Shown here: positions 58,220 to 64,000 of the stretch, one piece after another
How the letters are laid out: every line of letters starts with the position of its first letter
Position numbering within the stretch: position 1 is the stretch's first letter
From: Verrucomicrobiota bacterium
GTDB taxonomy: Bacteria; Verrucomicrobiota; Verrucomicrobiia; Opitutales; Cerasicoccaceae
Reading direction: 5' to 3'
NCBI GenBank assembly: GCA_039818205.1
Contig: JBCBUK010000002.1
Coordinates: forward strand, 160,001 to 224,000
DNA: 64,000 bases
Translations under genes and position numbers: made by a program
The notes under the pieces: generated by a model
Databases searched by the model: none
What the model was told of the DNA's origin: nothing
What the model saw: the letters and a program-made list of their open reading frames with translations, nothing else

Positions 58220-58475
58220 TGTTGCTGCTCAATCCGGGGTAAGCATTCGTTATGCCGGGTTAGTGCCAAGATAAATCTGAGTTCTAGAATGATTTATCCG
58301 ACTGGTAGGTGTTGAAATGTTTACCAAATTTCGGCTTCGTTTGATTTTTACTTCCTCGTAACTCGAACCTGGGACATTTGGTTTGGCAAAGCATGGTGGT
58401 GGTGGCACAGTTTGTGGTTAATATTTTACTGATCGTGCTGTCGGGCGCCCTAATCAGTGAGATCTTCTGCTAGTG

Positions 58476-60617
58476 ATGACTCAAAATACGGCCAGTGAAG
58501 ATGCCAACTCACCCGTTAGTACGGATCTGGGTGCCCTGGTTGGTCACAATCATTGTGTCGCCGGAAGCACGAGCATCGCGAAGGTACAAAAAATCTTCCA
58601 GACTCATCGCTACAGTTTCATGGCGGTGGTCGATAATCACCGGGTTGTGGGAATGTGCTCGCGTGAGCGCATTGGCGGTATGCTTGGATCTCAGTTTGGA
58701 TTCTCAATATACGGAAAAAAACCGATCCGCGATTTTATGGTCCCCCATCCGGAGATCATCCGGATTAAGACTCCGGTTCATGAGGTCTTGGAGCGGGTGT
58801 TTGGTCGTAGTTCGGAACGTTTTTACGAGGATGCGGTTTTGGTGGATGATTCTCAGCACCTGTTAGGGCTCATCCCCGTGGATAATTTAGTCCGATTGCA
58901 AAACGGACTGCTGAGCGAGAAAATCCGTCTGTATAAGCACAGTGAGCGACAGTTGATCCAGCAGAAGCAGCAGCTGCAGCAATTGACCGAAGAGTTGGAG
59001 CGCGCAAATGCTGAACTGGAATCGGCTCGGGACCTGGCCCTTGAGGGTACCCGGCTAAAGTCGGAGTTTTTGGCCAATATGAGCCATGAAATACGCACGC
59101 CAATGAATGGAATCGTTGGTATGATTAGCTTGCTTCAAGAATCGAATCTCGACGATGAGCAGCGTGGATTTGCCGATACGGTTCAAGGAAGCGTCGATGC
59201 TTTGCTCGGCATTATAAACGACATATTGGACTATTCGAAAATCGAAGCCGGCAAGTTGGAGGTTGCCGAAGAGGACACTCCGGTTCGTGAGTTGGTCGAA
59301 GAGTGCGTCCAGCTGATGTCGAAAAACGCCTCAAACAAGAGCTTGGAATTTATCTTGGACATCGATCCCCATGTCCCTGATTGGATGCGTTTAGATCCCC
59401 TGCGCTACCGGCAGATTATTAATAATCTGATTGGGAACGCGATCAAGTTTACCTCCGATGGAGAAGTGGTTGTCGTGGTGGACCTCGCACATGATCCTGA
59501 GCGCGGCACATTTCTCCGAACCTTGATCCGCGACAGCGGCATCGGTATTTCGAGCGAGCAGCGGAAGCACCTGTTCAACGCATTCATGCAAGCGGACGGT
59601 TCCACCAGCCGGAAATACGGCGGGACCGGGCTTGGTCTCGCAATTTCGCGGCGCCTAGCGACTCTGATGAATGGCGAGCTGGAGTTTACAAGTGAGCTGG
59701 GTAAGGGCAGTGCGTTCTGGCTGGATCTTCCGTTTATTCGTTCACAGGGATCTGAGTTTGGGCCGGAGCGGAGTCGCGTTCACCGAGGTATGCGGTATTT
59801 GGTCGTCGATGATCATCCCCGCGTTGGAGAGGTCATTCGGCAGTGGATCGAAGCTGAGAACGGAACGGCCGAGGTCTTTTCGGACAATCTGACGGCTTTA
59901 AATCGAGTGAAGCAGGCTGCCGCCGATGGCGTATATTTTGATTTTGCTTTGATCGAGGCGGATCAGCCCGAGTTTCGCGGTTCGGCATTTTGCGAGGGTG
60001 TCTTTGCAGATCCGCTTTTGACGGACGTGCGCATAGTCCTCATGGGCGATGTTAATCAACATGCGAAAGCTTGCTGCGAGGGCGCTAATCGAATTTTCAA
60101 ACCAATATGCCCGGGTGCCTTGCGCCGGATGATTGAGAAGCTGCAACCGGAGTCGCCCGCTCAACAGTTGAGGGAGGAAGTGAGTCAGTTGGCTAAGGTT
60201 GCTGATGACGCGCAGGACCCGATTTCGCTGCGCGTCTTGGTTGTTGAAGACTCGGTGACGAATCAGGAGGTTGCTGCACGCATGCTTAAGCGACTTGGGC
60301 ATCATGCAAGTGTCGTTGAGAACGGATTGCAGGCACTGGAGTATTTACGTGCGGAGACCGTTGATTGTGTGCTGATGGATTGTCAGATGCCCGACATGGA
60401 TGGTTATGCATGCACGCGGGCAATTCGTGAAGGCTACCATGGTGTTCGTTGCCGAGATATTCCGATCATTGCGATGACGGCTCATGCAATGAAAGGCGAT
60501 CGCAAGAAATGCCTCGATGCCGGAATGAATGACTATTTACCCAAGCCCATTACTTTGAGTGATCTTGAGGAGGTTTTGGCACGAGCCGAAATCCCTCAGA
60601 TTCGGATTTCAGGTTAG
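58476..60617 (+). CDS. Cytoplasmic hybrid histidine kinase: CBS pair + HisKA + HATPase + two receiver domains
   Basis: N-terminal CBS-like repeats, [43 protein letters not shown]2 [12 protein letters not shown]; no TM segment. Confidence 0.92.
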
Positions 60618-60743: not shown

Positions 60744-61355
60744 CTAGCGCTTAGTGCTGGAGGTTAGCAAAGATTCCTTTGCTTCAAGGCGAGTCTGCCA
60801 ACGGCGAAGTTGCTCTTCCTTGTTTGAAAGTTCGTTGTCCGTTTCGTAGTGACGCTGAGCAATTTCGGAAAGGCGATTCTCGCTTTCTTCGATGTATGAC
60901 TCGCGAACGGTCAACTCAGATTCACGGCGATCGAGTTCTTCTTCGCGTTGCTTGATGATTTTCCAAGCTTCGTCCATGTCGCGCGCTTCCATTACGCGAA
61001 TACGCTCTTGTTCTGCGACTTCCTGGGCGCGTTTACGCTCAGATTCGATGTGCGCCATCGCTGCGGCTTCAATGCCCTCTCGAGCCGCTTGTTCAAGGGC
61101 AAGGCATTTGACATAACCCACTGGCTCTAGGCCATCGATAACCAAATCCATGACGTCATCGAGCGAGGTATACTCGAGGCGAGGACCGACTGAAAGAATA
61201 GCTTTCTGGTCCATCCGCTTCTTCCCGAAGACCACCAGATAGTGAACGGACGTGTTTGCCCATAGCTCCCGAATGCCTTCATGGTGTTCGGGTTTCGATT
61301 CACTCAATAGTTCGTAGAGTGAGTATTCTCGGAAACTGTTTTTGCGTCCTAACAT
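60744..61355 (-). CDS. Hypothetical protein with C-terminal coiled coil
   Basis: 203-aa ATG ORF; Glu/Arg-rich heptad region in the second half. Confidence 0.7.
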   Translation of the reverse strand: MLGRKNSFREYSLYELLSESKPEHHEGIRELWANTSVHYLVVFGKKRMDQKAILSVGPRLEYTSLDDVMDLVIDGLEPVGYVKCLALEQAAREGIEAAAMAHIESERKRAQEVAEQERIRVMEARDMDEAWKIIKQREEELDRRESELTVRESYIEESENRLSEIAQRHYETDNELSNKEEQLRRWQTRLEAKESLLTSSTKR

Positions 61356-61663
61356 GCGGTAAATTCTTTAGATTAGTTTTCTCCTAAACTAGCTTCAATT
61401 TTACCCTAAGATACAGGCCAGTCGACTGGAATAAAAGATCAGCAATGACATTTAACCTGTTCGACACATTGGTCATTTTTGTCCGGGCTACAGTTTCTCC
61501 ATTATGGTATAAACTAGGCAATATTACCCATTCCTATGGTCTGCTGATAATGCGATCTTTTTAATAATCTGAAACGTTCCAGTAACGAATGTCAAAGTTC
61601 GGTAAACGGCATTGTTTGGGTTGGACACTCTAGGTGGGTAAGGCATTCGGTAAATGTCTAATC

Positions 61664-61987
61664 ATGGGGAAATCATCTCTGGAGGAAGATACTAGTTTGC
61701 GTCGATTGAAATCGCGACCCGGGCTTCGCAGTATGGTGGAGATACGGCAGGGTGGCGTTGTCGCTGCCAAGCGAGGCGAGCCAAACGAAGATCTAGTTGA
61801 AGCGACTCCGAATTTCTTGCGCGTGGGCAAAATGCTCGGTCGCAGTCTTGGACTGCAAGACCTCAAAGAGGTTCGTGTCATTGGTGATGAAAGATCCGTT
61901 ACCTTCATCGAAAGCGATGACCGCCGAGTAGGCGCGATTTACCTAGACGATCCAGCGCAGTCGATTAAGGCCGAACATGGAACTTAA
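61664..61987 (+). CDS. Small Roadblock/LC7-like protein
   Basis: L..L...PG...MV.I...G.V helix-strand start, then G..LG..LGL..LKEVRV and terminal beta strands; 11-nt overlap with the next gene. Confidence 0.6.
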   Translation: MGKSSLEEDTSLRRLKSRPGLRSMVEIRQGGVVAAKRGEPNEDLVEATPNFLRVGKMLGRSLGLQDLKEVRVIGDERSVTFIESDDRRVGAIYLDDPAQSIKAEHGT

Positions 61988-63899
61988 CGCCATCAGGGAC
62001 CTATTGGGTCGAACAAAGGGTGTTGAGGGTTTCGTGATCCTCGACAATCGAGGCGCTATTTTGAGTCAAGATTTGGGAAGTTATGCGAACGAGATTAAGC
62101 GCACTGAATTTGCAACTTGGATCCTCAACAGCTTTCACGCGCTAGACACTTACTACCCGCAGGCGTTTTTCCTTTTGCTGCGCTATGCGTCGGGTCAGGT
62201 CTACCTGACTCGCTCCGATTCCACACTGATAACGGTCATGTGCCGATATGGTGCTGACCTCCAATCTATTGAAACTGCTTTCAGCAAACACCGACAATCC
62301 ATGGCTAAATCGAACAGTTCCGGCATCGTCCGCGAGAAATCCCAGAAAGGCGAAACCGTCTTTCTTAAGATCAGTGAAACGGGCTCAGGCGCTACTTCTA
62401 GCCCAATTCCACAAAAGAAATCCGGGCCACCCGTTCCATTGATTATTGGTCTGGCCGTGGGCTTGTTAGTGATTGGCATAGGAGCCTTCTTTTTGACTCA
62501 GGGTCCTGGAGGCGAGACATCGCCGGAGGGAATTGAAACGCCGGTAACTCAGACTCCACCGACGACAGCCGCACCCGTGCCCTCGACTCCAGCGGGAGCG
62601 ACCGAGGCTGATGCGGCTACGGCTCGCGAACGGGCGGATTCGCTTGCGGTAATTGCCCGTCAGCACGACGGCTCAAATCGCGCTCCCAAGGATATGGCTC
62701 GGGCGGTGGCCAACTATCAAAGTGCTCAAGACGATTTTAGTGCGGGTCGTTATGAGGATGCGATCAAGCACTGGGATGATTCGGCGTCTTCGTATGGGCA
62801 AGCCTCGGTAAACTCGGCGGAGGTCGGGTTTCGCCAAGCCGTGCAGCAAGAAGGCTTGGAGGTTGCTTCCGACTACCCGATTCAGTTGTGGATTGAAGCC
62901 GAAGATTCAGTTGCTAAAGCCCAAGATATGGCGAATGCCGGAAACTATACCGAGGCAGTGGATCTGATCGTTGCCCAAGCTGATAAGCTTCCTCGATTGA
63001 AGGCCGGTATGCTGAAGCAGTTTCATCAGTTGGCGCTCGATGCCGACAAATCAAAGAACCTCGATGCCGCGCTCGATTTTTACCGAAAGGTCTTAGCCTT
63101 GGATCCAGATAATGCCACGGCGCGGAACTATTTTTATGCAAACCGTTATGAGCCCGGACAGGTAGTTTCCAACACGTTGGGTATGAGTTTTGCCTACATT
63201 CCGCCGGGCCGTTTTGAACGCGGTTCTCCTCCGAATGAAGCGTTCCGCGATGGCGATGAAACCCAATCAACGGTTACTTTGACCAAGGGCTTTTTCATGG
63301 CCACTACCGAAGTAACTCAGCACCAATGGGAACAAGTCATGGGCCAGAAGATGCGCATGGATGATCCGAATCCAGACTTTGTCGGTGGTCAGTTACCGGT
63401 CCACAGCATCACCTGGGAACAAGCGATTGAGTTTTGCCGTCGGCTTAGTGAGCAAGAAGGTAAAGTCTATCGTTTGCCGAGTGAAGCTGAGTGGGAGTAT
63501 GCGACGCGTGCCGGGACAACTGCTCCGTATAACAACGGGAAAATCCGCCTTACTAGTCGTGAAGCAAATATTTATGACCCTGCAGGCGAGGGTCTGGATT
63601 CCGTTGCCGCGGTTGCCTCCGTTGGAACACCAAATGCGTGGGGACTCTATGATATGCACGGTAACGTGTGGGAGTGGACCGCCGACTGGAGCGCTCCCTA
63701 CGCCGATGGACCGCAGGTGGATCCGGCCGGCCCAAATGAAGCTGAGGACCGAGTCGATTTGGCGATGAAGATTGTTCGCGGCGGATCGTTTCTCGATGAC
63801 TCGCATGTCGCTCGTAGCGCGAACCGCAGTGAAGCTTCCCCGGTCGTTGCCAATAGCTACACCGGCTTTCGCCCTGTCTTGGAAGTCGCCGACCTCTAA
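61977..63899 (+). CDS. Roadblock-like + TM + TPR + FGE-sulfatase (SUMF1)-fold protein
   Basis: N-terminal KGVEGFVILDNRGAIL; TM IIGLAVGLLVIGIGAFFL; Pro/Thr linker; ALDFYRKVLALDPDN TPR; TEVT..QW, PVHSITW..A..FC, RLPSEAEWEYA.R, NAWGLYDMHGNVWEW, RGGSF, GFR. Confidence 0.88.
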   Translation: MELNAIRDLLGRTKGVEGFVILDNRGAILSQDLGSYANEIKRTEFATWILNSFHALDTYYPQAFFLLLRYASGQVYLTRSDSTLITVMCRYGADLQSIETAFSKHRQSMAKSNSSGIVREKSQKGETVFLKISETGSGATSSPIPQKKSGPPVPLIIGLAVGLLVIGIGAFFLTQGPGGETSPEGIETPVTQTPPTTAAPVPSTPAGATEADAATARERADSLAVIARQHDGSNRAPKDMARAVANYQSAQDDFSAGRYEDAIKHWDDSASSYGQASVNSAEVGFRQAVQQEGLEVASDYPIQLWIEAEDSVAKAQDMANAGNYTEAVDLIVAQADKLPRLKAGMLKQFHQLALDADKSKNLDAALDFYRKVLALDPDNATARNYFYANRYEPGQVVSNTLGMSFAYIPPGRFERGSPPNEAFRDGDETQSTVTLTKGFFMATTEVTQHQWEQVMGQKMRMDDPNPDFVGGQLPVHSITWEQAIEFCRRLSEQEGKVYRLPSEAEWEYATRAGTTAPYNNGKIRLTSREANIYDPAGEGLDSVAAVASVGTPNAWGLYDMHGNVWEWTADWSAPYADGPQVDPAGPNEAEDRVDLAMKIVRGGSFLDDSHVARSANRSEASPVVANSYTGFRPVLEVADL

Positions 63900-63947: not shown

Positions 63948-64000
63948 ATGAAAAACGATATGCTCAGCCGCATCGCTCAAACGTCACTTTTGGGCGCCCT
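63948..64000 (+). CDS. Probable start of the next gene (signal-peptide-like), truncated by window edge
   Basis: ATG AAA AAC GAT ATG... reading MKNDMLSRIAQTSLLGA and open to the end of the window. Confidence 0.4.
   Translation, partial: MKNDMLSRIAQTSLLGA

Follow-up and report, generated by a model that had tools for sequence, protein, structure and literature searches.

We analysed a 64,000-nucleotide (nt) stretch of contig JBCBUK010000002.1 (positions 160,001 to 224,000, forward strand; hereafter the window) from a Verrucomicrobiota bacterium of the Cerasicoccaceae, and focused on a locus near its right-hand end that encodes a Roadblock-fold protein and a predicted single-pass membrane protein. 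A first-pass annotation, made from the sequence alone, had placed two overlapping open reading frames (ORFs) here, one of 107 amino acids (aa) at 61664-61987 and one of 640 aa at 61977-63899, both on the plus strand and sharing 11 nt, and had suggested that the operon continues past 63948. These coordinates are right, and the operon indeed runs on into the gene of a 403-aa PstS-family lipoprotein, which starts in the window (63948-64000, plus strand), extends to G000:C2:225159 (G000 being this genome) and is followed by a terminator-like hairpin, found in a scan whose hairpin total was at chance level. An alternative, longer GTG start for the 107-aa ORF lies at 61634, and the orthologues begin at the Met equivalent to 61664. 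On the other side, a divergent gene encodes a 203-aa protein, here called X (60744-61355, minus strand). The named homologues come from Cerasicoccus and Puniceicoccales, that is, from the Opitutales (Verrucomicrobiota), and the orthologues carry generic database names of the SUMF1/EgtB/PvdO annotation class.

The 107-aa protein (R1, 61664-61987) has no Pfam match of its own; three of its 21 aligned homologues match Robl_LC7, weakly (best E 0.014), and one homologue scores 23.3 bits on PF03259 (gathering score 23). Its AlphaFold2 model has a predicted local distance difference test (pLDDT) of 83.2 and the element order a-b-b-a-b-b-b-a of the ~100-residue Roadblock fold. The matches that Foldseek listed for this model are Roadblock, LAMTOR or MglB chains or large complexes containing them (best E 2.6e-6), and such chains also fill the top 17 places in a VIA-align comparison with 48,161 chains (best match: Z 9.8, root-mean-square deviation 3.7, 92 aligned). 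The model and both fold searches thus bear out the Roadblock fold that had been proposed for this small ORF. Against five same-genus orthologues it shows 65-71 third-position and 24-33 second-position differences, a pattern by which R1 is a conserved coding gene. An R1 profile compared with PDB sequences returned nothing relevant and no sequence-level match to MglB, and its comparison with the profile of the second Roadblock domain described below was weak (probability 14.7). The R1 family comprises 93 representatives at 50% clustering; among 49 of them that were scanned, 15 carry DUF4388 and two a receiver domain, fusions which by their domain content are signalling contexts. Many members (P0059-P0108) are DUF4388-Roadblock fusions of 216-321 aa, and receiver-Roadblock fusions also occur; Pfam misses the Roadblock in them.

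The 640-aa protein begins with a second Roadblock domain (R2, residues 1-107, 61977-62297), predicted to be cytoplasmic. Robl_LC7 matches residues 6-87 (E 4.7e-4) and 16 of 21 aligned homologues; on PF03259 the domain scores 20.3 and 22.2 bits, or 23.4 with in-frame neighbours (cut-off 23). Structure matches to residues 1-110 in the Atlas have TM-scores of 0.75-0.81, two of them being named Robl_LC7, and Foldseek gave LAMTOR and Asgard Roadblock matches with a TM-score by target of at most 0.72. In the AlphaFold2 model of the whole protein (mean pLDDT 67.7; R2 blocks 49-80) this part shows Roadblock-type secondary structure. One hydrophobic peak follows, the only one above 1.6 on the KD19 scale (2.79; residues 155-173, 62439-62495), modelled as a transmembrane (TM) helix at 153-171 between two disordered linkers, of which the one after the helix is rich in Pro and Thr; we infer an N-in/C-out orientation. 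Beyond it lie a well-modelled, presumably periplasmic helical region that is diagnostic of the subfamily (residues 210-389, 62604-63143; block pLDDT 85-97), with TPR models matching residues 350-385 under cut-off, and a formylglycine-generating enzyme (FGE)-sulfatase fold (residues 407-634, 63195-63878; E 4.2e-42), partly resolved in the model and for which Foldseek gives PvdO and FGE. The domain order given in the first-pass annotation is therefore seen in full, from the Roadblock N-terminus through one TM helix, Pro/Thr linker and helical/TPR region to the FGE fold. Coupling of cytoplasm to periplasm is the natural reading of such a single predicted helix.

The FGE fold had also been said to lack both catalytic Cys residues, and alignment to 6MUJ/2Q17 agrees: the Streptomyces FGE segment RGGSYLCHDSYCNRY aligns with RGGSFL-DDSHVA (RGGS segment, 63777-63827), from which both are gone, and the only Cys residues of the protein are C89 and C487. 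The RGGS segment is free of Cys in ten of the 12 members checked, G007 being truncated and the regular expression having matched another RGGS in G329. By these residues the fold is non-catalytic, and its C-terminal segment is close to invariant among orthologues. Its sequence matches among Cys-less FGE folds include PvdO, PorK/GldK and a Treponema variable protein; curated FGE-type models stay far below cut-off (PvdO, 108.6 of 500; GldK, 96.1 of 350).

Conservation across the Opitutales

A profile of the TPR-FGE ectodomain, searched over 401 Opitutales genomes, gave matches in 95 at E 1e-55, the majority of them confined to the FGE part; in the phylum-wide setting 31 of the 401 matched, the weaker matches in G075 and G649 being unrelated TPR proteins, and a single-protein scan of genome contigs found two loci. 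Four candidates were scored per genome, which makes the counts a lower bound with further members possible. On this basis the TM-TPR-FGE subfamily occupies at least 22 loci in 20 of the 401 genomes. We read all 22: 20 are full-length, the one in G006 is divided between two contig ends and the one in G007 is cut by a contig end.

In 20 of the 22 loci the DNA 3' of the receptor gene can be read (those of G007 and G086 end at a contig edge), and in 18 of these a PstS gene comes next. The two loci without it are second copies, in G074 and G199, where the first copies have it. An N-terminal Roadblock is present in 12 of the 22 loci, from two families (G000-G007, G011, G086, G207 and G277, the domain of the last being weak at E 0.0017), and absent from ten, from four families (G020, G074 twice, G170, G199 twice, G227, G322, G329 and G343). 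R1 is directly upstream in 12/12 of the former and 0/10 of the latter. Judged by gene content, the Roadblock pair is an optional, all-or-none cytoplasmic add-on. In a tree of the PstS domains, the Roadblock-less members nest among the Roadblock-bearing ones with unstarred support of 86-87, which hints at loss of the Roadblocks. The first-pass annotation had seen Roadblock plus FGE as the architecture; this stands for the 12 loci, whereas the conserved core is the TM-TPR-FGE protein with its PstS-like lipoprotein, often together with X.

The cytoplasmic linker of the 640-aa protein is disordered except for a conserved motif, KGETVFLKISE (residues 124-134, 62346-62378), which is a candidate docking site. 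A KKSV(L)xDLS stretch in four Roadblock-less members resembles it by eye; a regular expression for the motif found six of 12 members and missed this protein's own copy and that of G170. The idea that the linker Thr is a phospho-site for FHA docking was tried. FHA domains occur in three of five genomes and are absent from G207, which bears the motif, and the idea was therefore given less weight.

Protein X consists of a globular N-terminal domain of ~90 aa that fits no known family and a predicted acidic coiled coil. It has no significant match in Pfam or NCBIfam, and the Atlas gave leads and no assignment. In 14 of the 22 loci, four of them Roadblock-less and from another family, a homologue adjoins the receptor gene; in G329 the two are co-directional. 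The X profile matched 40 of the 401 genomes, some through the coiled coil alone. We opened 20 further X loci. X directly precedes canonical pstS in two of them (G086, G207) and a stand-alone Roadblock pair in G281; it adjoins the receptor gene in G277 and G329, and in G126 and G127 it belongs to a kinase/phosphatase/ferredoxin-like cluster. The remaining 13 hold no cassette gene. X is a probable cytoplasmic member of the system. Copies of its family beside the receptor, canonical pstS or the stand-alone Roadblock pair are found at L171:6398-7081, L172:6059-6688 and L178:6240-7839; the homologues in G127 (L182:4315-9265) and G126 (L186:2981-6214) have, by eye, PP2C-like phosphatase, kinase-like and ferredoxin-like neighbours.

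Some other genes near the receptor or of similar make-up may be mentioned. The G020 receptor (L046:4892-10920) has a different, unassigned N-terminal domain and sits between a TonB-dependent receptor gene and a PstS-like gene, with divergent ExbB/TonB-like genes upstream. Prepilin-like and ExbB-like genes further downstream in the present genome are not kept in relatives. There is no kinase domain in the 640-aa protein or in the receptor loci read. A kinase-FGE protein of 1055 aa is encoded elsewhere in the genome (G000:C5:68184-71351, L006) and by eye has a kinase-like N-terminus, a TM segment, repeats and an FGE fold; it is a possible cross-talk partner, and FGE frames of similar size are present in many relatives.

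A PstS-like lipoprotein and its putative docking

The 403-aa lipoprotein has a lipobox (LVAG-C26), a Ser/Pro/Thr tether of ~80 aa and a complete phosphate-binding domain. It scores 206.8 bits on TIGR02136 (cut-off 206.6) and matches the phosphate-binding protein of P. aeruginosa (4OMB/4PQJ) at E 1e-90, agreeing with 4OMB in the segments GSDT, GSS, MSR, RN and SGT, which we take to be its ligand residues. The genome contains three PstS-like genes: the cassette copy, a canonical one on contig C14 in the order pstS-(one gene)-pstC-pstA-pstB-phoU (gene identities read from the sequences), and a distant third. In the loci that we read, neither pstC, pstA nor pstB was seen 3' of the cassette PstS. 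In the tree of 27 PstS domains, a single branch (support 100/99, length 0.95) splits 18 cassette from seven canonical copies; two ungrouped rows, both from G011, group with the canonical side. A lipobox-like Cys is present by eye in 18/18 cassette PstS and absent from the canonical PstS of this genome. By tree and gene order, the cassette PstS is a dedicated, predicted lipid-anchored subfamily that travels with the TM-TPR-FGE protein, apart from pstCAB. In G207 the cassette lipoprotein (L076:4928-7072) has two PstS domains in tandem.

Models of the complex between the TPR-FGE ectodomain and PstS, built from alignments of 15 rows, scored 0.65, 0.56 and 0.54 in three runs, compared with 0.00 for 3/3 controls; the runs share at least 90% of contacts, and the partner pLDDT is 91. 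We take 0.56 against a best control of 0.00 as the score. In calibration 116 of 157 solved pairs passed, as did two of 215 mismatched ones, but the passing pairs at 0.60 or below were 18 solved ones and both mismatches, for which reason the docking of the PstS domain on the ectodomain is graded as weakly supported. The model raises a pairing that gene order had already made likely. The first-pass annotation had assigned periplasmic ligand binding to the FGE domain, and this has to be corrected: the ligand is likely bound by the PstS paralogue, which would dock on the FGE/TPR region.

Two conserved sites precede the operon. The first (61450-61467, plus strand) consists of two half-sites 11 bp apart and is a possible Pho box, resembling the repeats 5' of canonical pstS; its first half-site is close to invariant in 6/6 same-genus genomes. 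It scores 8.4 with a Pho-like matrix of 11-bp-spaced half-sites trained on six canonical pstS upstream regions. For 8/15 cassette upstream regions the repeats lie in the top 5% of long intergenic controls, kin among the 15 not being independent, and a PhoB-like regulator is present in 5/5 genomes, below the curated cut-off. These observations are suggestive of Pho control of the cassette. The second site (61582-61606, plus strand) has a 15-nt core that is invariant in 6/6 genomes and may be an operator or promoter element; its minus strand contains TTGACA and lacks a good -10 element to go with it, and a sigma-70 scan was at chance level (four found, 4.7 expected). As a regulon site, this 25-nt motif was rejected, there being no second strong copy in the genome (40.3 against 17.6 for the next). 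Further upstream in the window, a hybrid histidine kinase gene (58473-60617, plus strand) encodes N-terminal CBS domains, two receiver matches and no evident TM segment; the region 5' of it ranks 10th of 2271 under the Pho-like matrix, and the gene does not adjoin the cassette in relatives.

Roadblock pairs and the small GTPase question

MglB-type Roadblock proteins invite a search for their GTPase. Family-profile searches over five genomes together with motif scans revealed no single-domain or MglA-sized GTPase in G000 (99.97% complete). All 15 TIGR00231 matches in this genome fall in frames of at least 352 aa and the Arf/Ras matches in frames of at least 454 aa, ATP_bind_1 was never above cut-off in the five genomes, and among ORFs of 120-420 aa a motif scan picked out two proteins, by eye Obg-like and FtsY-like. 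Sub-cut-off GTPase-family frames in relatives measure 229 aa (G281) and 275 aa (G277). No small GTPase was seen in the loci read, including the four-gene neighbourhood. The absence of an MglA-like GTPase that had been reported for the window thus extends, by profile and motif searches, to the whole genome, and the MglA/MglB polarity angle of the first-pass annotation is not borne out, small-GTPase-domain matches being confined to frames of at least 352 aa. A GTPase-activating protein (GAP) reading of the MglB kind therefore lacks a substrate. By domain content, R1 and R2 are orphan Roadblocks in the sense of PMC4316618, according to which no orphan MglB-like Roadblock protein had been characterised by 2014; its supplementary tables list orphan MglB sequences and may bear on novelty.

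A second tandem Roadblock pair, of 104 and 180 aa, is encoded elsewhere in the genome (G000:C8:107602-108497, minus strand; L005:9602-10497) and is not fused to a membrane protein. We saw 11 loci of this stand-alone pair: an NtrC-like response regulator follows in nine, a contig edge in G090 and another gene in G281. Amt comes after the regulator in seven of the nine, and GlnK occurs in four same-genus loci; the order of pair and regulator recurs across other Opitutales families. The stand-alone pair may be a nitrogen counterpart of the phosphate module. The R1 tree and the R2 tree, each of 23 rows, both part 12 receptor-type from 11 stand-alone copies (support 98/92 and 100/100, flagged for long branches), the pattern that duplication and inheritance of the pair as one unit would give. 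From these congruent splits and the 12/12 versus 0/10 co-occurrence, R1 and R2 likely form a heterodimer.

Two genes 5' of the second pair lies a gene for a 579-aa protein with a TM segment, long helical repeats and a degenerate FGE fold (L005:11811-13550, minus strand), separated from the pair by a PIN/TRAM-like gene in a synteny of four same-genus genomes only. It was considered as a relative of the receptor and is treated as unrelated, since the match is limited to the FGE part and the synteny to the genus.

Interpretation and alternatives

We propose that the cassette encodes a phosphate-gated, trans-envelope receptor or scaffold of the Opitutales, in which the Roadblock heterodimer is optional and GTPase-free, and we put the chance that this is correct at a little under one half (about 0.45). 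In such a system the tethered PstS would close on phosphate and thereby change its docking on TPR-FGE, which would in turn cluster or release the single-pass protein. The cytoplasmic end, namely the linker motif and, where present, the R1/R2 heterodimer, would act as an adaptor platform like MglC and not as a GAP, and the coiled-coil protein X would be its likeliest client. For the output we can offer a guess at most, for example that phosphate uptake is tuned or positioned.

Several points weigh against this proposal. Ten of the 22 loci have no Roadblocks and a short or different cytoplasmic end, and a Roadblock-based signal therefore cannot be the core function; nor is there a catalytic or DNA-binding output domain in any of the loci read. 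Phosphate binding by the cassette PstS, the topology and the cytoplasmic contacts are all predictions. Scores in the range of the complex score, which came from 15-row alignments, are wrong more often than right, except for pairs that were likely beforehand. The Pho-like score of this genome's best site is unremarkable, as 8.5% of 564 long intergenic controls reach it; seven of the 15 upstream regions fall short of the 5% level, and the matrix, which grew from our own guess at the half-sites, would also suit other OmpR-type sites. In eight of the 22 loci X does not adjoin the receptor gene; it has no match in G020 and none of its profile matches in G074 or G199, and genomes without the receptor also hold homologues of it.

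The chief rival, itself unlikely, is a phosphate-capture scaffold without signalling, in which the TM-TPR-FGE protein would hold the tethered PstS at a set point of the envelope as a reservoir or as a relay to PstSCAB or TonB-dependent uptake, and the Roadblock pair and X would merely position the assembly. The same co-occurrence and docking evidence applies to it, the tandem PstS domains of G207 suit capacity, a TonB-dependent receptor gene lies 5' in G020 and ExbB/ExbD/TonB-like genes (by eye) 3' in G227, G322 and G343, and the loci show no output domain. The TonB neighbours, however, are not kept in this genus, and both the conserved cytoplasmic motif with a two-gene adaptor pair in 12 loci, which suggests regulated cytoplasmic binding, and the signalling context of the stand-alone pair, with its NtrC-like regulator in 9/11 loci, speak for the receptor instead.

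It is less probable still that the FGE fold itself binds a ligand (a glycan, a peptide, a metal or an organophosphorus compound) and that PstS is merely a co-regulated neighbour in a phosphate-starvation operon. Cys-less FGE folds do include PvdO, PorK/GldK and the Treponema variable protein, two second copies stand without PstS, and the possible Pho-like sites would account for co-location without contact; yet the PstS subfamily is specific to cassette loci, the genes keep their order across six families, and the docking model came through its controls, if weakly. That R1/R2 form an MglB-like GAP or polarity module for a small Ras-like GTPase is very improbable: the fold does match MglB and MglC among many Roadblocks, and Group 5 MglA is reported from some Verrucomicrobia in PMC4316618, but the loci read contain no GTPase, the matches in G000 are confined to large frames, and MglB scores below dynein-type and Asgard Roadblocks in the R1 fold search (Z 6.3 versus 9.8). 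A defence or immunity module (FGE-like immunity to a type VI secretion system, T6SS) or a diversified receptor with incidental neighbours can be all but dismissed. FGE-like immunity proteins exist (a title cited in PMC13713981) and one sequence match is the Treponema variable protein, but the C-terminal segment is close to invariant rather than variable among orthologues, the loci read show neither an effector nor a reverse-transcriptase gene, and the PstS synteny is stable.

Returning to the phosphate-gated receptor or scaffold, its closest parallels each share one part of it. In the H1-T6SS of P. aeruginosa, the lipoprotein TagQ and the FGE-domain protein TagR activate the single-pass PpkA, and their periplasmic complex is proposed to dimerise this inner-membrane protein (PMC13713981). 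Here, by contrast, the single-pass protein itself contains the FGE fold, a PstS paralogue serves as the lipoprotein, a Roadblock or short tail replaces the kinase, and no T6SS genes are found in the loci; for lipoprotein-FGE binding of that type, the model score (0.56 against 0.00) lends weak support. In the MglA/MglB/MglC/RomR system two different Roadblock proteins also occur together, and MglC binds an acidic helical C-terminus, that of RomR, as an adaptor (PMC10329633), much as X might be bound; the present system differs in having no MglA-sized GTPase, one Roadblock fused to a membrane receptor and no sequence match to MglB. Actinobacterial conservons (CvnA-D) likewise encode a Roadblock protein with a membrane sensor (PMC4316618; see also PMC13343842), whereas in our operon the histidine-kinase-like CvnA, CvnC and the CvnD GTPase are all missing, no histidine kinase, CvnC or GTPase occurs in the loci, and the Roadblock is fused to the membrane protein. 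PvdO and PorK/GldK share the fold and the loss of the catalytic Cys residues and differ in architecture and neighbours, with scores far below cut-off.

Receptors gated by a binding protein include LuxP/LuxQ, TorT/TorS and ChvE/VirA, and PstS takes part in sensing through PstSCAB-PhoU-PhoR. The likeness to the LuxP/LuxQ type is that a periplasmic solute-binding protein is proposed as a sensor that docks on a membrane protein; the differences are that the membrane partner is neither kinase nor transporter and has a TPR-FGE ectodomain, and that the binder is lipid-anchored on a long tether. The cassette would work like a binding-protein-gated receptor, and it belongs to none of the families tested. 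The first-pass annotation had not recognised the architecture as described, and the full-text literature searched, which leaves out most subscription papers, gave no description of the module. The stronger claim of an undescribed receptor class, running from a tethered PstS through TPR-FGE and one helix to a GTPase-independent Roadblock heterodimer and X, appears to us distinctly less likely.

If that claim is true, the stand-alone pair, next to an NtrC-like regulator and mostly Amt, would serve nitrogen in the same way, and Roadblock heterodimers would be general nutrient-signalling adaptors in the Opitutales, Ragulator-like. Two paralogous Roadblock pairs, one by a phosphate binder and one by ammonium transport, echo nutrient sensing by the eukaryotic Ragulator. 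The locus offers a concrete, testable job for orphan Roadblock proteins without a GTPase, and suggests a function both for a second, transporter-less PstS and for one of the many membrane proteins with a Cys-less FGE fold that carry wrong enzyme names in databases. The proteins are open to expression and testing in cultured, named relatives (Cerasicoccus spp.). Should a binding protein on a dedicated receptor read phosphate directly, this would be a route apart from PstSCAB-PhoU-PhoR.

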